64,000 nucleotides of DNA from a virus. Its lineage: Duplodnaviria > Caudoviricetes. The notes beneath the pieces were generated by a model that made no database searches, had not been told where the DNA came from, and was given only the letters and a program-made list of their open reading frames with translations. The stretch spans positions 174,518-238,517 of IMG/VR virus record IMGVR_UViG_3300003375_000001; one strand, 5' to 3'. The position numbers and the translations under genes are program-made. Positions 7,601 through 54,377 of this stretch are shown piece after piece; the stretch's first letter is position 1; every line of letters begins with the position of its first letter.

Positions 7601-10600
7601 TTTGGTACGGATCTTTCGAAGAATCTTACGAGGTTCTATCTTCTTAGTTTCCAAGTCATAAGACAGAACTTCTGTGATGGCGTCGTTCTCGTAAATATCC
7701 TTAATAGGCAATGACGTTTTACGATCAATCAGAACAGGTGTGTCCGCTGTGAAGCAGAATTGAAGGTTCAAGCCCGTGTTCATAGAAACTTCAACACCCA
7801 CCATAATTTTCTTGTTGGGGTTGGTTTCAAACTCGGCTCCGCACTCAGCCTTGTTAGAAGCCGTATACAGAATTGCTTGGGCTTTAAGCTCTGGAGGTAA
7901 GCACTCGAAGATAGTCTGAGCCGACTGATTGTAGTTACAGAAAATCAGTACCTTACCTGGCGTATTACTATCCAGGTGCTTCTTAACCAGTTCAATTACT
8001 TTAAGAACCTTAGGGCTGACTCGGTCTTCACCTTCCAGCATAACTGTAGCCAGAGGGTCGGCGGCTGGAGATATAACGTAGCGTTCTAGTCGTTGCAGAT
8101 AGGGCTTGAGCAGGCTATCGATGTCAAGATCGTCTGCATTGGACTCCTCGTCTTCACCGTCCTCTGATTGCCCCGTAAGCAAGAACCTCAGTGCCTTATT
8201 CTTAGACATCTCCTCTTGAATAAGCAAGGTTACTTCTTCAAGAATAGACTTGTAGACGTGTTGTTGTTTAGGTGTCAAAGACACCATGTGCGTATTTTCT
8301 TTCAGCAGAGGCAAGAAGGCAGCCCACTCTTTACGTTTAGCGTTAACCACTACCACGCTAGACTTAAGACGAGACATAATGTCGTTTTCCGCACCTGGCT
8401 TCCACGACATGACCTTGTTGCCACGAACGTCATCGGCATACTTATTGATGAAGTCTGCTTGACTACCAAAGATGGAAGGATCAAACAAACTCACCTGCTT
8501 AACCAAGTCCATCAGGCTGTTAGGCGTAACGGTACCAGAGGCTAAACGTTTGTAAGGGATATCGGAGATAAGACGAGCTACCGCGTTCTGACGGCCTGTT
8601 GTGCCCTTCAAGTAATGGGACTCATCGCAAGCCACGTAGTCAAACTTGAACTTGCGCAGCATTTCGACAACAGGAAACACATTGGTAGGAGCTACGCCAT
8701 AACCAATCGGCGTCTTTTTACTCTTACCATTACCAATGTTATAGTCTGTCACAACCACAGTATTAACGGGGGCTGTGCGGATCATCTGTTCCAGACCACT
8801 CAGGCCATGGCGACGAGGACTCATAGTATAGCTATTCACCGCGATCACGTTAACGCGACCTTCAGTGAAGTACACGAACTCCTTGACGTACTGGCCTACA
8901 AGGTGTGAAGGGCACATGATAAGGACACGGTGTACGTGACCTAACTTCATTTCCTTCAGCGCGTCTGTCAGAATCATTGTGGTCTTACCACCACCTGCGC
9001 TAACTGCTAAGATAGCAAACTCTGGAGAATTCCTAAGAACGTTTTGAGCACGAACTTGGTGAGGCATTAAGCCTTTGCCTTCACCCACAAAAGGAATAGA
9101 CTCGCCTTGGTAGTTGGCATCTACACCTTGGTGCTCATACTTTTTACGAGCCTCACGGTCTGTCGAAAACGTAGTTTCGATATCCTTTCCGTACAGCTCT
9201 GCTATCTTAGTTACCGCCACAACGCTACACACGGTTTGAACCGTGTAGGCTATGCACAATGTCTCAAACGAGGTGGCAGCCAGTTCGTTAACAAGAGCGA
9301 TAGCTTCCCAAATAGCCTTCTTACTATTGAGGTTAGTCTCCACAGTGAGAATGTCGGCGAAGGTGATATCACTGGGTTCTGTCTCAGCCTCGTCGTCTCT
9401 AGCCCTAATCGTTTCTACCATTACGGGCAAAAGCGTTTTCAGGTCTGGCATAGGAGTTTTCACATTGCCATTGCCTGTTGACACTGATCGCAATAGAGTA
9501 TAGGCATTGCCTCCGCGTTCACCGTTCACTGGCTGACGAAGCAGGCGGGCCGCGTGAGTTGCATTAACCGGATACGAGCGATCAAGAGACTTGACCATCA
9601 ACTTACCATCACGGTTAGAATAGGCAAACTTCAGGTTAACCCAGTCGGTAAATATAGGCTGTGACGGTGGAAACTGCTTACGTTCCGTAGTCTTGTCAAG
9701 AGGTATGGCACATAGCACACCGTCTGCCTGAGACAAGGCAGCTCTAAGCTCCGAGTCATACTTACCTACGTTGTTTGACTCTTGAGGTATGTACCATAGA
9801 TCCGCGTTTTCGTCTATGAGAATACCGTGTTCATTCGCGCGAGACTCACCCTTTACGCCTTGAATAGACTGAGCTATAGACGATAAGGGGAGTGCAAACT
9901 TTGGAGGGTCACGGAAGTAGCCTAGGCGGCCGTCAATCCATTCACGGATAAGACCATAGAAGTCAATTGGTCGAATCTGCATCCAAGGTGTCTGACACAA
10001 GTATTCTGCTTGCATTGACGTTACTTCGAACGTCAAAAAGGTTGTGACCTGTTCGCCTACAACTGCTATGGACACTTGACCGTTGTTCAAACCCTTAAGT
10101 GCCGCAAGATAAGCAGTCTTGAAGATACCTCCAGTATCGCGGAGAGACTCGACGGACTGGGTATGCGTTACTTGGATAGTCACAGTTTCGTTAGGGAACT
10201 GAGGTGTCAACGAAACCGCTGGATCAGTATATAGACCTTCTGGCTGGTCATTACCACAGAATATTTGCTTCAGTTTTTCTGTCCAGGTGCTGGCCCCTTC
10301 AAGAGGCATAGTGAACACAGGAACAGACACTTCAAACGTGTTGTTGAGCTTCTTTACCTTTACAAGGCTAGACGCAGCGGAATCAGTCCAGAACTCTGCT
10401 AGCTGATTGATAGCCTTGTTGTACTGCGCGCGATCACGACCAGAAGGTGGACGTTGAACCAGTTGAGGATATAGGACAGCCGTAGTGAAAGCAGCCCAAG
10501 ACCAGCGAGAATTCTTGATCCTGTTGTTATACAGGAACATGAACCCCGTTTTCATGTCTAAGGCACGCACGAAGGCAGGGTTAGAGAACGCGGGGTCTGC

Positions 10601-10723
10601 CTTCAGCGTAGAAACAGGCCGTTCAGACGAAGCCTTGACAACATAGTTGCGTGCTATCTGACGTGCCATTTCCATGACACGGTCTGACCGCGCCACGGAC
10701 TGAGGTTTGATTAGGATTTTCAT
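4628..10723 (-). CDS. SNF2-family (SF2) helicase/ATPase precursor with one intein
   Basis: Q motif LMPHQ, Walker A AGGGKT, Walker B CDESH, motif III SGT, motif VI QGNSRIGR; intein in motif V (TGLNLQF|CSRLI). About 1511 aa after splicing. Confidence 0.92.
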   Translation of the reverse strand: MKILIKPQSVARSDRVMEMARQIARNYVVKASSERPVSTLKADPAFSNPAFVRALDMKTGFMFLYNNRIKNSRWSWAAFTTAVLYPQLVQRPPSGRDRAQYNKAINQLAEFWTDSAASSLVKVKKLNNTFEVSVPVFTMPLEGASTWTEKLKQIFCGNDQPEGLYTDPAVSLTPQFPNETVTIQVTHTQSVESLRDTGGIFKTAYLAALKGLNNGQVSIAVVGEQVTTFLTFEVTSMQAEYLCQTPWMQIRPIDFYGLIREWIDGRLGYFRDPPKFALPLSSIAQSIQGVKGESRANEHGILIDENADLWYIPQESNNVGKYDSELRAALSQADGVLCAIPLDKTTERKQFPPSQPIFTDWVNLKFAYSNRDGKLMVKSLDRSYPVNATHAARLLRQPVNGERGGNAYTLLRSVSTGNGNVKTPMPDLKTLLPVMVETIRARDDEAETEPSDITFADILTVETNLNSKKAIWEAIALVNELAATSFETLCIAYTVQTVCSVVAVTKIAELYGKDIETTFSTDREARKKYEHQGVDANYQGESIPFVGEGKGLMPHQVRAQNVLRNSPEFAILAVSAGGGKTTMILTDALKEMKLGHVHRVLIMCPSHLVGQYVKEFVYFTEGRVNVIAVNSYTMSPRRHGLSGLEQMIRTAPVNTVVVTDYNIGNGKSKKTPIGYGVAPTNVFPVVEMLRKFKFDYVACDESHYLKGTTGRQNAVARLISDIPYKRLASGTVTPNSLMDLVKQVSLFDPSIFGSQADFINKYADDVRGNKVMSWKPGAENDIMSRLKSSVVVVNAKRKEWAAFLPLLKENTHMVSLTPKQQHVYKSILEEVTLLIQEEMSKNKALRFLLTGQSEDGEDEESNADDLDIDSLLKPYLQRLERYVISPAADPLATVMLEGEDRVSPKVLKVIELVKKHLDSNTPGKVLIFCNYNQSAQTIFECLPPELKAQAILYTASNKAECGAEFETNPNKKIMVGVEVSMNTGLNLQFCFTADTPVLIDRKTSLPIKDIYENDAITEVLSYDLETKKIEPRKILRKIRTKVRDKDKFVSVSTQDNKSGERAQVKCTDNHTFFLKGGKEVQAKDLKVGDQLITYGRKFDQLKLDADGSFIPRGQVKNVACAECGYIFRPGPGLNKHRATVHGIDTEKFANYKQTQVFHATTRWEDDTYRELIVAKRKAFETMPAGKAARKRTTEGGKKAWKDPVRRAAHSNRLRALWADDVYKKVVGAAIAKACSTDEARKAMSKRSKANWKDAAYRELISKRRNAYWEIQENREARSVVSKGIWEAKRETGEDVDWGNAISDACLKPASRKLRSSIVKARHATDPSFTAKGVRAMLKAQGTLPNKPERNVISLEIPGLKYVGDGQYFVSLEIDGQRVVKNPDFISTEHTSSKGRSLRVVEVIGARQYTKRGKVHDRKLIKAYADKGIECLIIEADACYDSEGLEKVHARLDSFINNHYLTVNAITPLHSAKVIGDYKYDLEVEGNHNFFACGTTEGKADVAIPVLVHNCSRLIRVDSVWTPGALEQGNSRIGRPNIKVKEERKFIYIDWVIAAGTIDVTKLAYLVSKKVVITKFEEAGNPLYSDENVPSPDLFPMTLDVIARSNETTADELRPAFEAYTAMHVAQFKDYAAYREQHPEDMNEDGSCRMTPIVRAPNLPNSKLMYRVPYVPGLDIYKAEELGLVRYDQFLMQDLDDSEEDDEDEGEEKESIAQKELSRAEFNKVSNFWVHTEYGDGQIVGLSKRALRIELSSGNKVVVNKLAAFVINRAQTNHGDMRTLILKESGDIPFDVPYDIQVKNATEVVIPKKKAEDTDERIHVALEITVVNDFINLEFDGVEKNPGGARALEGIGFTQPQPYMYAVMKTPQHMFKLFKAWTDAGFTFDAKSNNACKNVYQRWMKQRKNAVHQFGMATDATVRSFFQMQHKANADMSLLFPYPLIYEDQVYVAMPLLGHPATMKAINKVKVPGVRFYKADTKNQLYGTVSNLAKLDHHLALMIKKGFVITNIEDLKKERKRLQKVSPQLYTGIQLK
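6197..7756 (-). mobile_element. 520-aa intein in SNF2 helicase with zinc finger and PD-(D/E)xK-type nuclease
   Basis: Begins CFTADTPV, block B KCTDNHTF, block F YDLEVEGNHNFFA, ends VLVHN with +1 Cys; internal CAEC...H...H finger and NPDFI...VVEV nuclease-like motif. Confidence 0.93.
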
Positions 10724-10732
10724 TTGTATGAA

Positions 10733-11452
10733 TCAGCTAAGGGATTTAACAACACTGTCAGATACTTCTTTATACTGGGTCTGGATATAGTTTGCAAGAC
10801 CTGATTTGATCTCTAGCATTTCGGTGCTGAATACCTGGTAATCGTCCTTCTCCATACGAGGTCTAGCACTTGCTTCTAGCCTTGACAAGGCAGTAACGAT
10901 TTGCACAGCTATATCCATAAAGGCAGGGCGCACATGTCTCTCAACTATGTGCTGCCCTAACATACCTTTGTCCCGTACTGCCTGAACGTCAGCTATCAAT
11001 TCTCGCATTTGAGACACGGTCATGTTGAAACCGTGTATTCCTCTAGCGCCGTGTGACGTACGGACAGGGTGCTCCACAACAGGGAGAATCGATACCATCA
11101 TCTGCAAGAGCGAGCGCAGTATCAGAGTAACGGCACCGTCGTCTTCTCCAAGCTCCAGCATCTGAAGAATTACATCGCTCTTTTCGCCAAACTTAGACTT
11201 AAGTGCCTGTTCGATTTCAGCGTCGCTAGCGGGCGTTGAAACTACAGGCATATCTTTATAGGGCTGGACTATAGCTAAAGCCGTAGTAGAAGACTTAGAT
11301 TTTTTCTTGATCTTCGTCGTTGTGACTATGGCTTCAGGTTCGTCATCCACTGAAAAGGCCGAAGCCCGTCTGCGAGACTTGTCGTTATTAACAGGTTGGC
11401 TGACGGGCTTCGAAGGTGGCTTTTTTGTAGTAGGGAAGGACTGTAGTTTCAC
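10733..11452 (-). CDS. Hypothetical protein
   Basis: 239 aa; basic N-terminus, helical C-terminus; tight operon spacing. Confidence 0.75.
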   Translation of the reverse strand: MKLQSFPTTKKPPSKPVSQPVNNDKSRRRASAFSVDDEPEAIVTTTKIKKKSKSSTTALAIVQPYKDMPVVSTPASDAEIEQALKSKFGEKSDVILQMLELGEDDGAVTLILRSLLQMMVSILPVVEHPVRTSHGARGIHGFNMTVSQMRELIADVQAVRDKGMLGQHIVERHVRPAFMDIAVQIVTALSRLEASARPRMEKDDYQVFSTEMLEIKSGLANYIQTQYKEVSDSVVKSLS

Positions 11453-29270: not shown

Positions 29271-30809
29271 TCAGTCCAGCCACCATTGAGTTTGAGACTT
29301 TGTTGGACGATTGTTTTGTTGATTGAACTTCGTCAGACAGAATTCAAAGTAGGCTTTTACCGACTGGGCTGGCTTCTTTCGCTTGGCAATAAGAGCTTTG
29401 AGCTTGGCTTTAGTTTCGGCTAACTTGGTTTTCAAGTTGTCCTGATCAAGCTTAGCCAATTGCCTTACCTTCAGTTCCAGAATTTGATTAGCCTGTTCAA
29501 CCGTTATCTTCAAACCTTTGGCAATCAGCTCTGCGGTGTTTGGCTTACGCAAGGCATTCATGATAGTGTCCAAATGATCACACGCATGAATGAGAAGTTC
29601 CATATAGGCAATGTGCTTTTCTACTTCACCTATTTGGTAGTCAAGCGAATCGGCTTCAAGTTTTACTCGAAACTTGAGCCAGGTCATGGCAAGCTCAGGA
29701 ACAGACAGAGCCTTGAAAGTTGTGTCCGCTTCGTTGCGACCATTGCGCACTCGAAGTTTTCTATCCGACACATAGACGTTGTAGCTGACCTTACTTCGCG
29801 TGAGAGCCTTGACCTTTTCGGCTACCGCGTTAAAGTCATTCATATTCACTGTCTTGCGAACTTGAATAACGTAGCTAAGGCCCTTACCTGAAGACACACC
29901 TTGCACCATGCTCTTCCACCATCTGGACTCTTCCAGTTGTCGCTTGGTAGGAGCTTTCTTTGACTCGGGGAGCTTTCCTTGCACCTTTGCTATCACAGAG
30001 CCTATGTTTACTTCAGGGGCAAACTTGTTCCACGAGATAGTCTTTTTGCTGGTGTCTATGTCTAGCGGAGACTCAAACTCGATGGTCGCATTAGGCGTGT
30101 TCATCAAGTTTAGGATGGACTCTCGATTCGATTTTGACTTTACTACCTGAGCACCCCAGGAAGTATTGAAACGTAGGCCCTTAGCAAAGTCTACAGGCGT
30201 AACCTCCTCTCTGTCTAGCATCCTACACATCAACGGCAGAAGAGACTCAGGAGTAAAGCCAGGTAAACTTGATTTGGTACCGTAACCGATACCCGTTTGA
30301 GAGTTGAATAGAATGTTTGGCAGCAGGCAGGGCAGATATACAGGCTCTTCATCCTTGTCATCATAGTTTGGCATTATTGGCGACACCGCCAAATAGTTTG
30401 GCTGCACAAACTGCCGACCGTATATAGACAAGCGAGCAGCAGGATACCTCATGGCCGCTGCGGGGTCTACTAGGTTACCCCAGTTCCCTTGCCCTTCAAG
30501 AATAGGTACGTCGCACGTAGCGGCGACAACCATAGCTCCATATATGGAAGAATCCCCGTGGGGGTGGTACTTACCAATCACGTCACCAACGATACGGGCT
30601 GCTTTGGTATACTCTCTAGCTATCTTTGAAGAGGCCCACGTTATGCGTCTGGTGACAGGCTTTAAGCCGTCCTGCAATGCTGGGGTGGCACGTTCCTCGT
30701 TTACTTCTGTGCCATAAGCTTTCAACGATACTTTCGCGTAGTCTCCAAGTTCTACGCGGCCTACTTCAGCCCGCTTCGTTGATTTAGCGGCTGGTGGTTT
30801 CTTTGTCAT
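29271..30809 (-). CDS. gyrA: Type IIA topoisomerase subunit A (GyrA/ParC family), no C-terminal pinwheel
   Basis: DGLKPVTRR, GKYHPHGDSS, GQGNWG, catalytic AAMRY; only 512 aa, so probably not a supercoiling gyrase. Confidence 0.93.
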   Translation of the reverse strand: MTKKPPAAKSTKRAEVGRVELGDYAKVSLKAYGTEVNEERATPALQDGLKPVTRRITWASSKIAREYTKAARIVGDVIGKYHPHGDSSIYGAMVVAATCDVPILEGQGNWGNLVDPAAAMRYPAARLSIYGRQFVQPNYLAVSPIMPNYDDKDEEPVYLPCLLPNILFNSQTGIGYGTKSSLPGFTPESLLPLMCRMLDREEVTPVDFAKGLRFNTSWGAQVVKSKSNRESILNLMNTPNATIEFESPLDIDTSKKTISWNKFAPEVNIGSVIAKVQGKLPESKKAPTKRQLEESRWWKSMVQGVSSGKGLSYVIQVRKTVNMNDFNAVAEKVKALTRSKVSYNVYVSDRKLRVRNGRNEADTTFKALSVPELAMTWLKFRVKLEADSLDYQIGEVEKHIAYMELLIHACDHLDTIMNALRKPNTAELIAKGLKITVEQANQILELKVRQLAKLDQDNLKTKLAETKAKLKALIAKRKKPAQSVKAYFEFCLTKFNQQNNRPTKSQTQWWLD

Positions 30810-46264: not shown

Positions 46265-46714
46265 GAGAAGCCAGGCACTTTCTCCCAGATAAAGTGCTCA
46301 AGAGGAAAGCTGATTGTCAGCATGATCCAGAATGAAAGTGACTTTAACTGCGACCTACATTCGTGATAACACTCAACTAGCTTCCCTTGTTTATCTATAT
46401 GCTGGTGAGACACGGTCTTAAAACCCAAACACCTTGCGCATAGCTGGTGACATACCTTCAGCCATAGATGCTTTGTCTTCTTCGTCAGCAGGTTCGTCGT
46501 ACTCGCCATCGATAACTTTCTGCCTCAGTTCGTGAAGACCTGCCTCATGCAACAACCCAGCTAACGCCGTTTTGCCACATATGTACTTTTCATTCTTGAA
46601 GTCATGGTACTCACCGGCTTTAGCCTCTTCAATCATACGCGTGATGAGAGGCGTAACCGGCGTAACCTTTTCCAGCTCAACTACGAGGTCTGTGCGTGTG
46701 TCTTTCTTAGTCAT
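46237..46714 (-). other. Two small hypothetical CDSs (46418-46714; 46237-~46420, membrane)
   Basis: AGGA SD before 46714; overlapping stops and starts. Confidence 0.6.
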
Positions 46715-46722
46715 GATGTTTC

Positions 46723-47244
46723 CTAGTAAGGGTAAAGGAGGACGCCGGAAACGCCGACGGGTTCTTTCTTAGCTGTGTCAAAGGATATAAAACAGTGACC
46801 GTCGTCTACAGTACGAGGTTTTACTCTAACCACTCGGACTTCCTTAGGCGCGCTGCAAGTCAGGTCTTCGAAGCTACAAGCTATTAAAGGATCACCTGAC
46901 TTCAAGTCCTTGGCCATAACGCAGCCTTCTTGAACCCTGGTGTCTCCGTTTTTATAGCGAAGCAGGGGGAACACGGTGTGGGGTAAACAGGTCAACTTCT
47001 TACCTGTTGACAAATTGATTTGAACTACCGAAGTACCAGAGTCTTTTGACTGTGACACGCCAAACGCCTCGGTTAAGTGATAGCCTCTGTCCTTGTTCCA
47101 AGATACTACAGTAAACCTAGCGTTGGCAAAACTAGACTGACCTTCTATAACCCATGGATCGTCAATCCACTGACTGACTTCCGTTATGTCCTGTCTACCT
47201 GGCAGTCTTAACTGCAAAGTAGGATTGTATAGAACGTTAGACAC
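46723..47244 (-). CDS. Stand-alone, catalytically dead Hint-fold (pseudo-intein) protein
   Basis: Block A-like VLYNPTLQLRLPG (Cys1 to Val), block B-like VVQINLSTGKKLTCLPHTVF (TxxH lost), AKDLKSGDPL, block G-like SGVLLYPY (HN lost). Confidence 0.75.
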   Translation of the reverse strand: MSNVLYNPTLQLRLPGRQDITEVSQWIDDPWVIEGQSSFANARFTVVSWNKDRGYHLTEAFGVSQSKDSGTSVVQINLSTGKKLTCLPHTVFPLLRYKNGDTRVQEGCVMAKDLKSGDPLIACSFEDLTCSAPKEVRVVRVKPRTVDDGHCFISFDTAKKEPVGVSGVLLYPY

Positions 47245-47959
47245 CTAGCAACTCCTTACGTGTAGACACGTCGTCCGACATGAGCAAGGTGAAGTACGTG
47301 TTCTTTTCAGCCATCTCCGTAGTCACTTGTTTAAGCCTACGTGTGGCAGGGTTAAAGACAGCGTACTCGATCAGCTCACTAGGAACTTCACCCCAGCCTT
47401 TGATATGCTGAATATGTAAGTTAGCGGGTGCACCCAATCCCTCTAACGTGGTTCGAAGATCGTTAGCTGATGGGCCGAACACGTATTCACCCTTGTAGAT
47501 GGAATAGTACTCAGGAACGTCTACAAGGTGAATATAGCCGGCCTTGAACAAGCCGGGCATATACTTGTAGAACAAGGCCAACTCGAGGTTGTTGATGTGG
47601 CCACCGTCGGGATCGGGGTCACTCAACACACAGATAAAGTGTGTGCGCAAGTTCCCGATAGGGTTCTCAAGGTTCTTGGCGTCAAAGCCTATCATGGCCA
47701 AGATGTAGACGATCTCTGCGCTAAGAAGTACTTTCTCGGGAGACTCCCGAAACGCATTCATGATTTTTCCCTTGAGAGGAAGGATCTCTTGATACCTGGA
47801 GTCACGAGCCTCGCGGCAGTTGTGAACTACTACGCCGTTGGCGATAAAGTTTTGGTTTTCATACCTATGTCCTCGGGTAGTTTGATTCGTCACGTCGTAT
47901 ACAGGTATAGGCTTGTCAAGCTTAATTCGCTTGACAGACGTGACTGTCCTCATTTTCAT
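47237..47959 (-). CDS. gyrB: Split-intein C-half (47 aa) fused to the C-terminal TOPRIM part of topoisomerase subunit B
   Basis: MKMRTVTSVKRI...VYDVT...NFIANGVVVHN|CREARD...ILPLKGKIMN...DPDPDGGHI...KGWGE. Confidence 0.93.
   Translation of the reverse strand: MKMRTVTSVKRIKLDKPIPVYDVTNQTTRGHRYENQNFIANGVVVHNCREARDSRYQEILPLKGKIMNAFRESPEKVLLSAEIVYILAMIGFDAKNLENPIGNLRTHFICVLSDPDPDGGHINNLELALFYKYMPGLFKAGYIHLVDVPEYYSIYKGEYVFGPSANDLRTTLEGLGAPANLHIQHIKGWGEVPSELIEYAVFNPATRRLKQVTTEMAEKNTYFTLLMSDDVSTRKELLGV
47819..47959 (-). mobile_element. IntC of naturally split intein
   Basis: Blocks F and G ending HN, +1 Cys; net charge about +5. Confidence 0.92.
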
Positions 47960-47996
47960 AGAGGGTGATTCATCTGTCAATTGAAAGGAAGTTATC

Positions 47997-49241
47997 ATGA
48001 AAGATACCGTAGCTGAAAGATTGTTTAAAAACGGGGTAATAGCCCGAGGCCAGTGCCCCATAGAGGAAAAGGTCGTTACACACCTACTTAAATTAACAGG
48101 TCGTGAACTCAAACAGGCTTGCTGGCTAAAGTTACCTAAACAAGCCTTGGACTTACTATTAGCTGCTACCATAGATGCACAAACATCCTTAGGCCTGTCT
48201 AGACCGTCTACGTCACACAAAGGTATTTTAGAGGACGCGTTTGTAGCTTACCTATTAAACGACAAGATGAAGTTTAAATGCCCAGGGTGCAACCAGTTTA
48301 CGTTACCTATAGCAGAGAAAGGTACAGGCCGGTATCGTAATTCTTTTTGCACCATAGCGTGTATGAACGCGTGTGAAGAGGTAGTGAGGAGAAGGAGAGG
48401 GACATGCAAGGCACGCTATGGGTATGAAGAAGCAAACCACAACCCAGAAATAGCTGAAAGACGAAACGCAAACGTGAGAAGGGTCCAGAAGGAAAAATAC
48501 GAAGATATTCAAAGGTCAAAACGAAAAACGGCGTTAAGTAACTGGGGTGTAGAACATCACATGCACCATTCTGTATTTAGAGCAGAAACTAGCCGACGAA
48601 ACGTAGCTTTGAACACTTCAGCGTTAGGTAGAGCCGCGTACAAAAAGCGAAGTGGTTTTGACAACCCTATGCATGACCCAGCTACCCTAAAGAAAATGTT
48701 GGACACAAAAATAGCTAGGTATGGCACAACGTCTTCATCACCTCACATGAAAGGCAACAAAGGTAGGAACAACTTTAGTTCTACAGAAATGCAACAGGCG
48801 ATAAGAACGTCTGACGGGAAATTGAAAGGACGGGTGATGAAACAGCAGCTTACGGTTAAGGTAAGCTTTAGAGGGAAAGGGCTACTGGTAGGCTCAGGAT
48901 TAGAAGCCTCATTTGTTAAACGCCTAGAAGAAAACAAAAACATCAAGGCTGTAGTTCAAGGAGATAAACTCCCTACTATAAGTGTCGGCACTAAACGTTA
49001 TTTTCCTGATCTAGGGTTAATAAGCACCTCAGGAAAGAAAGCTTTAGTAGAGGTTAAGTCTCCTTTCACTTTCAAAGCAGAAGGAAGCAAGGTTATAGCT
49101 TGTGCCCTAGCTGCCGTTAAGGTAGCAAAGAAACACCAGGCTGTTTACGTCATGGCTGTGTGTGAAGGGAAGAATGAGTGGAAGACAATGGTCAACCCTA
49201 CCAAAGCACAGTTAGTAAACTACTTAGTATCCATTATGTGA
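47997..49241 (+). CDS. Free-standing putative homing endonuclease (Zn finger, YG-x repeats, TnsA-like PD-(D/E)xK domain), inverted between the intein halves
   Basis: CPGC...FCTIAC; SGLEASF...YFPDL...LVEVKS; AAGGA SD; 3' end overlaps the IntN stop by 18 nt. Confidence 0.85.
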   Translation: MKDTVAERLFKNGVIARGQCPIEEKVVTHLLKLTGRELKQACWLKLPKQALDLLLAATIDAQTSLGLSRPSTSHKGILEDAFVAYLLNDKMKFKCPGCNQFTLPIAEKGTGRYRNSFCTIACMNACEEVVRRRRGTCKARYGYEEANHNPEIAERRNANVRRVQKEKYEDIQRSKRKTALSNWGVEHHMHHSVFRAETSRRNVALNTSALGRAAYKKRSGFDNPMHDPATLKKMLDTKIARYGTTSSSPHMKGNKGRNNFSSTEMQQAIRTSDGKLKGRVMKQQLTVKVSFRGKGLLVGSGLEASFVKRLEENKNIKAVVQGDKLPTISVGTKRYFPDLGLISTSGKKALVEVKSPFTFKAEGSKVIACALAAVKVAKKHQAVYVMAVCEGKNEWKTMVNPTKAQLVNYLVSIM

Positions 49242-52200
49242 GACTACTTTCTTACCGTCTAAGTCTTCAGCCTTAGTATACAAACCGTCATCCGTTAAGA
49301 ACAAATGGTCGGGAGTACACGTTATAACCGTTCCGTCGTCTAACTCGACCTCTACTAGATCGCACGTCTCTTTTGTAATTATGGGTACAGAGAAAGTTCC
49401 CGTCATTATCTTGTTGGTATCAAAGTCTAAGAAAGGTCCTTGCCATTCCAACGCGTTCTCATGCAAGTAAGATAAAGACTGAGGACCTCGTTCTGTTTGC
49501 ACTATAGTGCTTCCGATAAAACACCCGCCAGCCGCGCTCTCTCCTTCCAGAATGAAAAGCTCACGCTCGGCAGGAGTGCAGTTAGGTGACAAGGCAGCGT
49601 TATGCTTCATGCCACCTTGTGACGCCTTGCGTAGCTTACCAATAACGTCTTTGCTTGCTTTGAACTGAGTCTTTAACTGCTTGAGGTCAAAGCACCTTTG
49701 GCATAGAGCTTCAGTTAGAGCCTTGTTTTTCTTGAAGAAGGTAGTAAACTCTGCTAGCAACGTCTCCTTAACTGGTCCGTCACCACGTTCATCAACCAGC
49801 TTTTCCTTAGTCTGGGATGCGAAGCGAGGGGAGCTCATCTTGACGTTGATAACGCCTAGCACACCGTCCTTCAATTCGTTAAGCGTAAACTCCTGGCGTT
49901 TCTTGACGAAAGGCTCAAGAGCTGCAAACATAGCAGAGAACAAGGCATTGAAGTGAACACCTCGCTCTGGGTTGGACAACCCGTTCGTGAAGGCCTGCAT
50001 ACCGCAACCGTCATAGTTGGTGAATTGAAGCACTACGTCCATCAACACGTTTGTGAAGTGAAACACAGCAGGGTCGATAGGCTTAGACTGGGTCTTTGCT
50101 ACCTGATCAACGACAAACTGCTTGGGTCCGCCAGGATGACAGATGGTTTTGTTCTTGCCTGAGTGATGCTGAATCTCAACCGTGAAGCTAGGGGTAAAGT
50201 AGCAGGCCATGTTAGCCCACTCGAAAATGAACGTACCCGGAAAAGACTTTGCAGAAAAGATGCTGGGATCTGGCTTGAAGTGAACTAGCGTGCCTTTTGT
50301 CAGAGGCTTATTACTAAAAGGGCTAGGATAGGTAGCGCCGGAAAGCTTCTTTAGCTCTTGTGTAAGCTTACCTTGCTTAAAGCCAATAGTCCACCACGCA
50401 CCCTTATAGAAAGTAGTGACATTGAAAAACGTTGACAAAAAGTTTGTGGCTTTTATGCCGATCCCGTGCGAATTGGATACTAGCACTCCAGGCTCCACAA
50501 AGAAACAGTGTTGTCCGTCCACCGTAAGGTCGTAGACCGAAACAGCTTGATTTACCTTGTAAGGCCGTACTCCAGTAATTCGGTGGTTGAAGTTATTAAC
50601 AAAGTCTTCAAGACCTTCAAAGGTTATTCCGTGCTCGTATTCAATAATGGCAAGACCAAATTTCCACTGAGGCGCACAAGAAGCCTTAACTAATGAGTAT
50701 GCTTCTTCTGTAAGAGACTTAGCTTTCTTAAGGCTAGAAACAAAGTAAGCTACCATTTTGCGCAAAGACTCGGGGGCGCGCATACGAATTTCAGCTTGCA
50801 TCATTCGAAGCTCTTGAGCTTCTTCGGACTGGTCTTCATGCAATACAAGAGGCCCACCACTCAGCAGGTGTCTTTTGAACTTTGTCAGCGTGGTATACCT
50901 ATACAACTGAGCATACCGTCCATAGATAACAGCCGAGGTTTTTGGCCTACGATTAAACTCATGAGGCGTAACCTCAGATATATCGTCAAACGTCTCCAAG
51001 TGTTCACGCCACACCTTAAGCGACTTTTGCCAGTTAGCGTTCTTGCTAAAGGTTACAGGATCTGTGCCAGTTCCATTATGTAAATCTTCGAGCTTATCTT
51101 CTGCAATAGGTGACCTTCCAACCTTTGACTTTAGTCCCAACAGGTACTCATCAACCAAGGTTACAAGGTCAGGCTTTGATATATAACGAAGAGCCTTGAG
51201 CCAGGTTATCTCACTATTCCTACGAACAGCACTATAGGTAGAAGACGTTATTTTACCAAAGCGTACTTTAGCTCTAGCTGCTATACGAATAACTTTTTGC
51301 GTATAGGACTGGTAAATAAAGTCTTCGTCTACATTTTGTGCACTAAACTTAATTGAATTATGTGCCCTTAAGTCGGCCTGTTTGACGCGAATGTGCACTT
51401 TTGCATATTTGGATCGGCTTTCTGAATGTTCTCTGTGATGATCAGACACGGTGAGGACTTTAAGGTTAGAAGGCCTATTGTCCTTCCGTATAGAGTTCTT
51501 ATGGTGTACCTCATCCACGTGAGGACGAAGTTCATACTCATGATAGTGCTGTCCTACACGCCGGTGGATATGGAACCATTTGCCTTGTTCTGTTTGATGT
51601 TGATACCCATCCCGATCTTCTTTATAGTAGGTAGACACTAAGGAAGTACCAGGCAAAAGATTCTTAGCCTGAACACCTTTTATAGCTCCACCTCTACGTG
51701 TATAGAATACATGATCAGGTGTACATCTAACCGTAGAGTCATCGTCTAGAGTAACCTCTACAAGGTTACGTGTCCGCTTCGTTAATTGGACGTGGCTGAT
51801 TTGAGAGGGTACGCACTTACCTGTGACCTTGTTATAAGTCATCAAAGGTATAGGCTGAGGGTTGTTGCACCAACGTTCGTATAACTTTTCTAGTGTTACA
51901 GTCTTTCCACTCAACAGCCGAATCTTTGTATCACCTGTGAAACACCCTCGACTAACCTCGTAAGCAGAATCCTTATCCAGCTTGCCACCTGCGTGCAACA
52001 CAGAGGTAATAACCTGCAGCCCTGGAAGCTTGTACTTGTTACCAGAGATACTGTCCGTTACCTCCATCAAGCCAGTCGGCATACCTCGTCCGTCATCGTG
52101 AACGTAGTAGCTTCCGTCTTCCGCTATCATGAAAGTAGCCTTGGTAGCATGACCGCCAAGAGCCTCGTCCACTACGTTGTCCAGGGCCTCTCGACAGATG

Positions 52201-52325
52201 GTAAATACACCCGCCGCGTCAGTAGGGCCAATGTACATACCCGCTTTAGCGCGTACGGCTTGAACAGACGTTAGCGCCTTAAGAGCACTTTCGTCATACA
52301 CTTTCTTTTGAGGTGAGGTAGCCAT
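49224..52325 (-). CDS. gyrB: Topoisomerase subunit B N-terminal part (GHKL ATPase, start of TOPRIM) with a full intein and a terminal IntN
   Basis: RAKAGMYIG, EALDNVVDE, DDGRGMP, LHAGGK, FASQTKEKL, LFILEGESAAGG|C. Confidence 0.95.
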   Translation of the reverse strand: MATSPQKKVYDESALKALTSVQAVRAKAGMYIGPTDAAGVFTICREALDNVVDEALGGHATKATFMIAEDGSYYVHDDGRGMPTGLMEVTDSISGNKYKLPGLQVITSVLHAGGKLDKDSAYEVSRGCFTGDTKIRLLSGKTVTLEKLYERWCNNPQPIPLMTYNKVTGKCVPSQISHVQLTKRTRNLVEVTLDDDSTVRCTPDHVFYTRRGGAIKGVQAKNLLPGTSLVSTYYKEDRDGYQHQTEQGKWFHIHRRVGQHYHEYELRPHVDEVHHKNSIRKDNRPSNLKVLTVSDHHREHSESRSKYAKVHIRVKQADLRAHNSIKFSAQNVDEDFIYQSYTQKVIRIAARAKVRFGKITSSTYSAVRRNSEITWLKALRYISKPDLVTLVDEYLLGLKSKVGRSPIAEDKLEDLHNGTGTDPVTFSKNANWQKSLKVWREHLETFDDISEVTPHEFNRRPKTSAVIYGRYAQLYRYTTLTKFKRHLLSGGPLVLHEDQSEEAQELRMMQAEIRMRAPESLRKMVAYFVSSLKKAKSLTEEAYSLVKASCAPQWKFGLAIIEYEHGITFEGLEDFVNNFNHRITGVRPYKVNQAVSVYDLTVDGQHCFFVEPGVLVSNSHGIGIKATNFLSTFFNVTTFYKGAWWTIGFKQGKLTQELKKLSGATYPSPFSNKPLTKGTLVHFKPDPSIFSAKSFPGTFIFEWANMACYFTPSFTVEIQHHSGKNKTICHPGGPKQFVVDQVAKTQSKPIDPAVFHFTNVLMDVVLQFTNYDGCGMQAFTNGLSNPERGVHFNALFSAMFAALEPFVKKRQEFTLNELKDGVLGVINVKMSSPRFASQTKEKLVDERGDGPVKETLLAEFTTFFKKNKALTEALCQRCFDLKQLKTQFKASKDVIGKLRKASQGGMKHNAALSPNCTPAERELFILEGESAAGGCFIGSTIVQTERGPQSLSYLHENALEWQGPFLDFDTNKIMTGTFSVPIITKETCDLVEVELDDGTVITCTPDHLFLTDDGLYTKAEDLDGKKVVSHNGY
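49227..49523 (-). mobile_element. IntN (99 aa) of naturally split intein
   Basis: CFIGSTIV...VEVELDDGTVITCTPDHLF...AEDL then stop; net charge about -11. Confidence 0.92.
50472..51944 (-). mobile_element. 491-aa intein with HNH endonuclease in the ATP-lid motif of subunit B
   Basis: EVSRG|CFTGDT...CTPDH...VHHKNSIRKDNRPSNL...VYDLTVDGQHCF...VLVSN|SHGIG. Confidence 0.93.
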
Positions 52326-52999
52326 TAGAAGTTTGACAGTAAGAAGTTGGCGAGTTCGTATGCATCGGTTCGGGACAGCTGTGACTTAAGGAACGATCTG
52401 CTAGTTCCAGTCACCCAGTCTTTACCAATCATGTCTTGAGTTTTAACAGCAAGGGTTTTAGCCCCGCCTGTGTCCTCAACAGCAAGATGTATACGGTAGG
52501 TCTTAAAGTCAAGGGCTGCTACTGTTGGAGGGGGAGGTGTGTCCTGATAGAACATACCATTGGGTATTTCCAGATCAAATACAGGGCGGATACGCCAAAG
52601 GACGTCGCCTCTGTCTGCACGTTCCTTGGCCTCGCGTCTTACACGGAGAGAGTACCTGGACATGTACTGGCTAAACTGATCTATAATCTGAGTCGCAGAC
52701 TTTTGAGCCTCTGCGTTGGGCTGGATGATATAGATAACGGTTCTGTCTTCCGTCTTACACAGAAGATCCGTCTTGCTTACGGCGTCTTCAAACTGACTAA
52801 GGATCTGAGAATATATGTCAGTCCAAGCGTGCACCTTTATCTTTTGACCTTTAAGCACGGTGTGCCTAATTATGTCCAAGCTTACAGCAGGAATCCTAGC
52901 CGTAGACAGACCGCAATCTATCATGGCTCTGTAGTCTTCCGGTGCTACCGGGTACACATGATCACGTAACGTAACAAGGTTGATTATATTGCTTGACAC
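52325..52999 (-). CDS. Hypothetical protein
   Basis: 224 aa; stop overlaps the subunit B start (TAATG). Confidence 0.72.
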   Translation of the reverse strand: MSSNIINLVTLRDHVYPVAPEDYRAMIDCGLSTARIPAVSLDIIRHTVLKGQKIKVHAWTDIYSQILSQFEDAVSKTDLLCKTEDRTVIYIIQPNAEAQKSATQIIDQFSQYMSRYSLRVRREAKERADRGDVLWRIRPVFDLEIPNGMFYQDTPPPPTVAALDFKTYRIHLAVEDTGGAKTLAVKTQDMIGKDWVTGTSRSFLKSQLSRTDAYELANFLLSNF

Positions 53000-53669: not shown

Positions 53670-54377
53670 TTATTCTTCCCAGTCGAAGTTGTCGTCGTCA
53701 GAGGCCTTCTTGCCTTTGGCAGGAGTTTTCTTGCCAGGCTTCTTGGCAGGAGGCTCATCTTCGTCTTCAGACTCGTCTTCTTCGTCCTCTTCTTCCTCTT
53801 CAGCTTCGTCTTCTTCGTCAGGATCCGCGCGCTTTGAGGTCTTCTTCGCAGGTGCCTTCTTCGCAGGAACTTTCTTCTTCTTAGGAGCTTCCTCTTCTTC
53901 CTCTTCAGCTTCGTCTTCTTCGTCTTCCTCTTCAGCTTCGTCTTCTTCCTCTTCTTCGTCAGGATCGGCACGCTTAGAAGTTTTCTTCGCCGGTGCCTTC
54001 TTAGCAGGCACCTTTTTCTTCTTAGGTGCTTCCTCTTCAGCTTCGTCCTCGTCTTCAGCCTCGACCTCATTGCCTTCGTCGTCAGCGATGCTGATAGTAA
54101 TGCCGCGATTTGGAGCGAACAGGATCTTGTTGTTGTCGTCAGTAACGATCAAGTACAGATCCTTTTCTTCACTCCACTTGACTGACTTGGCAGTCACGGT
54201 CCAGCTGTAGACGCCGGCGATCATCACCAGGCCCTTTGAGTCAGAGTAGGGGATTTGCTGACGGTCAACGATTTCCTCGCCGACTACGCGCATTGTTTCA
54301 AGTTCGGGATGCTTCTGGGGTGGACCCGAAACAGGACGCAGGGCAGAGAGAGTCGTGAAGGTAACCTTGTAAGACAT
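53670..54377 (-). CDS. Charge-block protein: folded N-domain plus alternating acidic and KKKKVPAKKAPAKK blocks
   Basis: ~47-aa unit duplicated at protein and DNA level; GGAG SD. Confidence 0.85.
   Translation of the reverse strand: MSYKVTFTTLSALRPVSGPPQKHPELETMRVVGEEIVDRQQIPYSDSKGLVMIAGVYSWTVTAKSVKWSEEKDLYLIVTDDNNKILFAPNRGITISIADDEGNEVEAEDEDEAEEEAPKKKKVPAKKAPAKKTSKRADPDEEEEEDEAEEEDEEDEAEEEEEEAPKKKKVPAKKAPAKKTSKRADPDEEDEAEEEEEDEEDESEDEDEPPAKKPGKKTPAKGKKASDDDNFDWEE

Follow-up and report, generated by a model that had tools for sequence, protein, structure and literature searches.

The window analysed here, a stretch of 64,000 nucleotides (nt), comprises the final 64 kb (positions 174,518 to 238,517) of virus record IMGVR_UViG_3300003375_000001 (Duplodnaviria; Caudoviricetes), a complete genome of 238,517 bp with direct terminal repeats. 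It carries the gene for the B subunit of a type IIA topoisomerase in two pieces; the first ends with the N-terminal half of an intein (IntN), the second begins with the C-terminal half (IntC), and a gene for a homing-endonuclease-like protein lies between them on the opposite strand. The locus is very probably a fractured gene, in which the mobile TOPRIM intein of the sole GyrB-like subunit was interrupted where inteins canonically carry their endonuclease. The anatomy of the locus, its homologies and conservation, the purifying selection acting on it and a predicted complex of the intein halves together make it highly likely that real protein trans-splicing joins the two pieces.

Nearly all genes of the window are located on the minus strand, where the N-half gene (52325-49224) is followed by a gap and then by the C-half gene (47959-47237); the nuclease gene on the plus strand fills this gap. 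Stop codons occur in every minus-strand frame across the gap, and the frames of the N-half and the C-half differ; therefore, the intein is truly split. The features of the locus, with the evidence for each, are:

49224..52325, minus strand: N-half gene, 1033 amino acids (aa), GyrB-like GHKL ATPase, transducer and start of TOPRIM (open reading frame (ORF), translation)
50472..51944, minus strand: contiguous (cis) intein with HNH endonuclease domain, 491 aa, aa 128-618 (boundaries and intein-less allele of relative L002)
49227..49523, minus strand: IntN, 99 aa, aa 935-1033 (alignment with NrdJ-1 and homologous IntN in 7 other loci)
49224-49226, minus strand: stop codon after IntN
49224..49241, both strands: 18 nt over which the convergent IntN and endonuclease frames overlap at their 3' ends (ORF coordinates)
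47997..49241, plus strand: homing-endonuclease-like free-standing gene, 414 aa (Pfam, PHROGs, alignments, AlphaFold2 (AF2) model)
47819..47980, minus strand: IntC, minimally 47 aa (ATG 47959), probably 54 aa (TTG 47980) (alignment)
47237..47818, minus strand: C-extein, 193 aa, remainder of TOPRIM and GyrB C-terminal domain, then stop (Pfam, phrog_543, GyrB structures)
29271..30809, minus strand: GyrA-like partner (topoisomerase II small subunit), unsplit, about 18 kb away (PF00521, 6.7e-64 at G000:C1:203881-205209)

The window derives from a metagenome assembly, and the stretch is present in one freshwater metagenome run. The inverted segment could thus be artefactual and result from misassembly or missequencing of a contiguous intein whose endonuclease is in frame, and in one relative (L008) the single ATGA by which the IntN-HNH frame overlaps the IntC frame could be a 1-nt sequencing error. 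Against such an artefact, a second, separate assembly of the freshwater run, which is maybe the source sample, contains one contig that is identical over 46700-52400 at a depth of about 46. Furthermore, an antisense gene overlapping at its 3' end in the same way is present in six other lineages, from other samples and assemblers, and the antisense ORF has its own Shine–Dalgarno (SD) sequence and is under purifying selection. The probability of an artefact is therefore close to nil.

Topoisomerase halves and the split intein

The extein of the N-half consists of two segments, residues 1-127 with the start of a GyrB-like GHKL ATPase, and residues 619-934 with the remaining ATPase, the transducer and the first TOPRIM motif (ILEGESAAGG; E927-G-E929-SAAGG). 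This half matches DNA_gyraseB (1e-19), Intein_splicing (1.3e-13) and HNH_3 in Pfam, and phrog_543, the phage topoisomerase II large subunit, at 4e-65. The C-half ORF (47237..47959, minus strand, 240 aa) reads CREARDSRYQEILPLKGKIMN... after IntC and continues with DPDPDG, KGWGE and the GyrB C-terminal domain; its extein matches DNA_gyraseB_C at 1.3e-9. Across the two halves, the Pfam domains of a type IIA topoisomerase B subunit are complete, with HATPase_c (weak), DNA_gyraseB, Toprim (weak) and DNA_gyraseB_C.

The phrog_543 profile breaks precisely at the junction 450|451. Its positions 153-450 are covered by the N-half in an alignment ending at residue 934, and positions 451-636 by the C-half from the +1 Cys onwards. 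Together with IntN and IntC, this break supports the split intein at EGESAAGG|C of TOPRIM that a preliminary description of the sequence had proposed, and the exteins, estimated there at about 636 aa, add up to exactly 636 aa. Bacterial GyrB structures in the PDB match the C-half from the last intein residue, N47, on (E about 7e-24). The split site, which we take to be that of the Ssp GyrB (Synechocystis) intein, directly precedes the SAK(Q/S)GR segment of bacterial GyrB. The break places the TOPRIM glutamate E927 on the N-half and D114, D116 and D118 on the C-half. The complete 238.5-kb genome contains only one GyrB-like gene, besides an intact GyrA-like gene, and the phage's own enzyme therefore depends on the rejoining of the halves. 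The earlier proposal that one cis and one trans splicing event would be needed for an active enzyme is supported.

The cis event concerns the contiguous HNH intein in the ATPase region, which would excise itself. This intein (aa 128-618) begins with CFTGDT..., contains RCTPDH as block B, ends with ...VLVSN|S and is inserted in the SRG|SHGIG motif. L002 provides an exact intein-less allele of this site (AVSRG|SHGIGIKATN; N-half of 540 aa), and homologous cis HNH inteins occupy the identical site in L008 and in a further relative, L033.

IntN begins with block A (CFIGST) and ends ...TCTPDH...SHNGY before the stop codon, TCTPDH being block B. An isoelectric point (pI) of 4.3 and a net charge of -11 confirm the acidic, 99-aa IntN of the preliminary description, and comparison with known split inteins shows that it aligns over its full length with the NrdJ-1 split intein (8ubs, E 0.003). 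IntC (residues 1-47: pI 10.3, charge +4.7) contains block F (PVYDVT) and block G (NGVVVHN) and ends VVVHN|C. The class 1 splicing residues are present, namely C935, T1007-P-D-H1010, D22, H46-N47 and the +1 residue C48. The split lies at the canonical endonuclease position before block F: IntN matches the N-part of the NrdJ-1 intein, L008 holds an HNH domain exactly at this point, and the intein of relative L013 is contiguous there.

Candidate start codons for IntC are ATG 47959 (47 aa), TTG 47980 (54 aa) and ATG 47998 (60 aa). A length of 54 aa is probable because the TDESPS stretch encoded after TTG 47980 is conserved; it is identical in L002, which has ATG at that position, and (D/E)(S/T)PS occurs within IntC of distant relatives. 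Thus, a basic IntC ending in VHN|C, as described before, is retained, while the 47 aa assigned to it are more likely to be 54.

Conservation across relatives follows the chemistry of splicing. D22, H46 and N47 are nearly invariant in the alignment of C-half relatives. In eight diverged split loci, the junction is always SA(A/G)G|CF ... VVHN|(C/S/T), block B T-x-x-H and the block F Asp are kept in all, and the charge ranges from -8 to -13 for IntN and from +0.6 to +4.7 for IntC. Relative to L002, whose C-half is 79% identical, the proportion of nonsynonymous differences (pN) is 0.32 for IntN, 0.28 for IntC, 0.27 for the nuclease and 0.11-0.15 for the exteins, and that of synonymous differences (pS) is 0.74-0.84 and saturated. 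The pN values are well below this saturated pS, indicating that IntN, IntC and the nuclease are under purifying selection.

IntN and IntC are also predicted to associate. The complex predicted for IntN (930-1033) and IntC (1-55) has a score of 0.88, compared with 0.00 for the best of 3 controls, a mark attained for 51 of 78 solved complexes and for 2 of 108 mismatched pairs. Contacts coincide between runs in 96% of cases, and the partner has a predicted local distance difference test (pLDDT) value of 81. The predicted interface would also permit intein halves that do not splice and serve only as a non-covalent dimerisation module holding the topoisomerase pieces together; assembly of nuclease-split phage genes through their tails is documented, and such a role of charged tails has been proposed for Aeh1 NrdA-a/NrdA-b and T4 gp39/gp60 (PMC3045599). 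Association alone, however, could do without Cys1, the His of block B, the terminal Asn and the nucleophile at +1, and these splicing residues are kept in eight lineages despite exteins that are only 31-45% identical and synonymous sites that are saturated. A purely non-covalent role is accordingly very unlikely.

Several points weigh against trans-splicing, or against the activity of the locus as a whole. No recognisable SD is found at any candidate start of the C-half, the start codon is ambiguous and expression is assumed; an SD is also missing from the N-half and from about half of the phage's genes, and the IntC genes of the relatives L005, L007, L033 and L090 have a clear one. A search for RNA-sequencing runs containing the locus found none, and a scan for sigma-70 promoters and intrinsic terminators gave counts at or below shuffled expectation. 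The complex score shows likeness to solved split-intein complexes and may reflect memory of them. In the cis intein, the penultimate residue is Ser instead of His, and the same holds for its homologues.

If trans-splicing takes place, the two halves would be translated separately, and the acidic IntN and the basic IntC would associate into a Hint fold. Splicing would then join ...EGESAAGG to CREARD..., yielding a 636-aa subunit with the TOPRIM glutamate and the DxDxD motif on one chain.

The antisense nuclease gene

The 414-aa ORF in the gap (47997-49241, plus strand) is equipped with a strong SD, AAGGAAG. Depending on which candidate start of IntC is considered, its ATG either is 16-37 nt away or overlaps that start within the palindrome TCATGA, and the last 18 nt of its frame overlap the final IntN codons on the opposite strand. 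The protein matches Pfam DUF7487 (1.8e-10) and, weakly, RE_endonuc, and its repeat region matches phrog_3339, annotated 'homing endonuclease'. It consists of a helical N-domain, a zinc module with four cysteines (C95, C98, C118 and C122), DUF7487 repeats and a C-terminal PD-(D/E)xK domain. Family alignments of 8 and of 31 sequences show repeated (R/K)YG(V)xN modules and invariant C95 and C98, with C118 and C122 invariant bar one exception. The nuclease contains E303, P337-D338 and E352-V-K354, and E303, D338, E352 and K354 are invariant in the 31 sequences. In the AF2 model (pLDDT 86), residues 290-414 exceed 90 and disorder is restricted to 247-284. Thus, the plus-strand PD-(D/E)xK nuclease that had been proposed for the endonuclease position is supported by the ORF, the motif alignments and the predicted fold.

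As modelled, the C-terminal domain has a TnsA-like PD-(D/E)xK fold. Its best structural match in VIA-align is TnsA (1t0f; Z 9.6, root-mean-square deviation 3.9 Å, 115 aligned residues), followed by Hjc (Z 7.4) and tRNA-splicing endonucleases; Vsr (5.5), I-Bth0305I (5.0) and I-Ssp6803I reach Z values of only 5.0-5.5, reflecting the shared fold. A Foldseek search of the whole model against the PDB returned nothing at E <= 0.001, and a profile search against PDB sequences, Vsr and I-Bth0305I included, gave nothing significant. With an invariant E...PD...ExK motif and no sequence match to Vsr, the nuclease thus falls outside the two families, GIY-YIG and Vsr-like, known from the fractured genes of Dassa et al. 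At four loci, the 5' region of the nuclease gene was folded as RNA in search of hairpins hiding the ribosome-binding site, as described by Dassa et al.; the z values were -1.3 to +0.4, and nothing was conserved. The DUF7487 family is very large, with 25,826 representative clusters at E <= 0.001 and 3,927 at E <= 1e-30; a tblastn search of the nuclease against GenBank phages found no match.

The endonuclease, if active as presumed, would cut intein-less alleles of co-infecting relatives, and this cutting would copy the IntN-nuclease-IntC cassette. Homing targets exist, since the split site is empty in about 70 of the 80 best IMG/VR relatives; together with the cis site, which is empty in L002, these provide the intein-less alleles whose comparison the preliminary description had proposed. 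Alternatively, the cassette could be a fixed, domesticated relic, in which the intein splices and the nuclease no longer homes, having taken on another role or being en route to loss. Nuclease identity tracks extein identity across locus pairs (r 0.94, from non-independent pairs), suggesting mainly vertical descent, and two relatives, L089 and L091, lost the nuclease yet kept the split intein. These observations contrast with the invariant E...PD...ExK residues and near-invariant zinc cysteines of the 31 aligned members, with a nuclease pN well below pS, with the empty sites and with the inteins of distant lineages, which are more alike (36-53%) than their exteins (31-45%), as expected of a cassette moving between alleles. 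We regard domestication as possible, though fairly unlikely.

All lineages that retain the nuclease gene have it in convergent orientation to IntN, and transcription of the C-half must therefore cross it antisense. The antisense placement might be a selected design, which couples nuclease expression and topoisomerase reassembly via transcriptional or antisense-RNA interference, but we consider this unlikely. If true, it would represent a stable, self-limiting symbiosis of intein and nuclease, and the locus would offer a diverged family of natural split inteins, maybe mutually orthogonal, that is usable as trans-splicing tools.

A second DUF7487/PD-ExK gene is present elsewhere in the genome (G000:C1:87647-88675; L094:1498-2742, minus strand; 414 aa, profile E 1.4e-48). 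It is free-standing outside any intein, in antisense orientation between a 175-aa ORF and a helicase-like gene, the start of which it overlaps by 29 nt. This second antisense copy fits the idea that a free-standing homing endonuclease invaded an intein.

Relatives and neighbouring genes

A search with the C-half revealed 12 further clusters of 232-251-aa proteins that start with a homologous IntC, and the contigs of these relatives come from different samples and different assemblers. The order of N-half, antisense DUF7487 nuclease and IntC-half recurs in six other lineages (L002-L004, with C-halves 79% identical to that of the window; L005-L006; L007; L033; L090; and ENA ERZ1426851), so that the nuclease is antisense in all 7 lineages carrying one. 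The overlap between its 3' end and IntN, measured at six loci, is 9-26 nt, and the nuclease start is 35-102 nt away from IntC in lineages that keep this gene. Intein identity among the eight diverged members is 36-55%, with one close pair at 85%, and the +1 residue is Cys, Ser or Thr.

Other relatives display further states of the same site. L013 contains a contiguous 141-aa mini-intein in a single ORF. In L008 (4919-6141), an HNH domain is fused after IntN and its stop codon overlaps the ATG of the IntC frame (ATGA), which represents either a recently split intein whose nuclease is still joined to IntN or an error of 1 nt in assembly or sequencing. L091 keeps the split intein with the nuclease reduced to a 59-codon antisense remnant (E 3e-7), and L089 keeps the split with a gap of 246 bp and no nuclease.

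A nucleotide search of the locus against GenBank phages gave no match, and tblastn of the C-half against cultured phages revealed no phage with this split. Scanning IMG/VR with the single C-half protein gave nothing, whereas an alignment-based scan did find relatives. Gp170 (L095:3768-6347) of the cultured jumbo Burkholderia phage BcepSaruman, a candidate for the same split at 98% coverage, was rejected, because a single ORF encodes it and its insert sits elsewhere, behind DPDPDG. This intein-like insert of about 170 aa occupies a third site within the TOPRIM motif, DPDPDG|PFVGET...IMSAN|CHIN; its first residue appears non-canonical, and the record is annotated only as a GyrB-like topoisomerase. 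C-half matches of the PaBG type, which start at query residue 2-8, appear to result from the N-extein end aligning to IntC and were set aside because similar IMG/VR matches lacked an intein when searched with a hidden Markov model.

Additional insertions are seen in several of these genomes. The ERZ1426851 contig (201.8 kb; protein P0016) encodes the large topoisomerase subunit in three pieces. An N-half of 540 aa is followed by an antisense DUF7487 gene (453 aa), a protein of 174 aa and, only 34 nt downstream, a C-piece of 208 aa; the 174-aa protein reads as IntC, a 21-aa extein and a second IntN. The nearby GyrA-like gene also looks fractured, with 174 aa, a 363-aa ORF and 484 aa with an intein match. 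In L007 (1531-3194), a partial, 282-aa duplicate of a topoisomerase N-terminus is found upstream of the complete split gene; it contains a cis mini-intein with a stop soon after, is followed by a GIY-YIG/NUMOD3 endonuclease gene and looks like a relic of endonuclease-driven gene conversion. The 286-kb phage of L033 apparently has two contiguous inteins in its GyrA-like gene (7603-11250; 1215 aa), besides one cis and one split intein in its GyrB-like gene.

Directly after the C-half, the window contains a 173-aa ORF (46723-47244, minus strand; GTGTCTAA), the GTG start of which overlaps the C-half stop. It is Hint-like in hhalign against a mini-intein profile (probability 95%, E 3.8e-8, 115 columns) but its Cys1, its block B TxxH and its terminal HN have all been replaced (LTCLPHT, ...GVLLYPY); its AF2 model is unusable (pLDDT 48). 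Homologues follow the C-half in L002 (54% identity) and L008. None follows it in L005, L007, L089 and L091, so the split intein does not need this ORF. Upstream of the N-half gene, a 235-aa protein (53670-54377, minus strand) contains a basic-acidic unit twice (APKKKKVPAKKAPAKKTSKRADPDEE followed by runs of Glu/Asp) and stands out in the composition profile by a strong AT skew.

Comparison with known systems

Fractured genes were described by Dassa et al. (2009) at 26 loci of the Global Ocean Sampling data, covering eight enzyme types and no topoisomerase (PMC2677866). Their hosts include gp41, IMPDH, DnaE, NrdA, NrdJ, ligase and terminase (PMC2677866), among them the three (gp41, NrdJ and IMPDH) that the preliminary description had named as precedents; examples of their split inteins are gp41-1, gp41-8, NrdJ-1, IMPDH-1 and NrdA-2. 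The window locus resembles them in that the gene parts are adjacent, in order and in the same orientation and together encode one complete protein, in that IntN closes the upstream part in-frame, IntC opens the downstream part and a free-standing endonuclease lies between, in a split located where the endonuclease would be inserted, and in the pairing of an acidic IntN with a basic IntC, as in the NrdJ-1, IMPDH-1 and DnaE split inteins (PMC2677866). NrdJ-1 is also the best solved match to the window IntN. However, the three ORFs of the Dassa loci are on one strand, 27-51 nt apart, and their nucleases are GIY-YIG or Vsr-like/EDxHD proteins (PMC2677866). In the window, by contrast, the host protein is a type IIA topoisomerase B subunit, the endonuclease is antisense with its 3' end overlapping IntN, and it belongs to the DUF7487 proteins and carries a TnsA-like E...PD...ExK domain. 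Thus, this kind of layout is already known, and what is new relative to the literature searched is which protein hosts the intein, which family the nuclease belongs to and that its gene runs antisense.

The large subunit of T4 topoisomerase II offers a second comparison, as the preliminary description had recognised: gp39 and gp60 are separated by the insertion of mobA, without an intein (PMC3045599). The same enzyme is split within TOPRIM by a homing-endonuclease gene in both cases, and the pieces must reassemble. In T4, assembly is non-covalent, and a T4-type break lies about 25 residues downstream of that in the window, as estimated from a phrog_7229 match. Contiguous GyrB inteins, including those of the phage homologues L013 and L008, share the position in the TOPRIM EGDSAGG|S region but are single polypeptides, while the window intein is naturally split; the Ssp GyrB intein was split only artificially and used as a tool (PMC11766414). 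Antisense LAGLIDADG endonuclease ORFs nested in contiguous inteins were reported by Gorbalenya 1998, as cited in bioRxiv 10.1101/2025.01.02.630785. They share with the window an endonuclease on the strand opposite the intein, and differ in that the window intein is split and its nuclease is of the PD-(D/E)xK type. Tn7 TnsA is the best structural match to the nuclease, and the nucleases of relatives give faint matches to Pfam Tn7_TnsA-like_N; the window nuclease nevertheless has no significant sequence similarity to TnsA, no transposon context and different N-terminal zinc and repeat modules. A full-text literature search, with subscription journals largely outside its coverage, returned no natural split intein in a gyrase or topoisomerase, and DUF7487 is not mentioned in the literature searched.

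Natural split inteins underlie the tools for protein trans-splicing, and few families of them are known. The locus contributes a further family, of at least eight diverged members, for which an unsplit relative is available for comparison, and the type II topoisomerase joins the enzymes that phages keep as fractured genes. It also connects DUF7487, a very large and uncharacterised family, with a role as homing endonuclease. Among the relatives, many stages in the life cycle of intein and endonuclease are represented at one site, which is useful for understanding how split inteins originate and persist.

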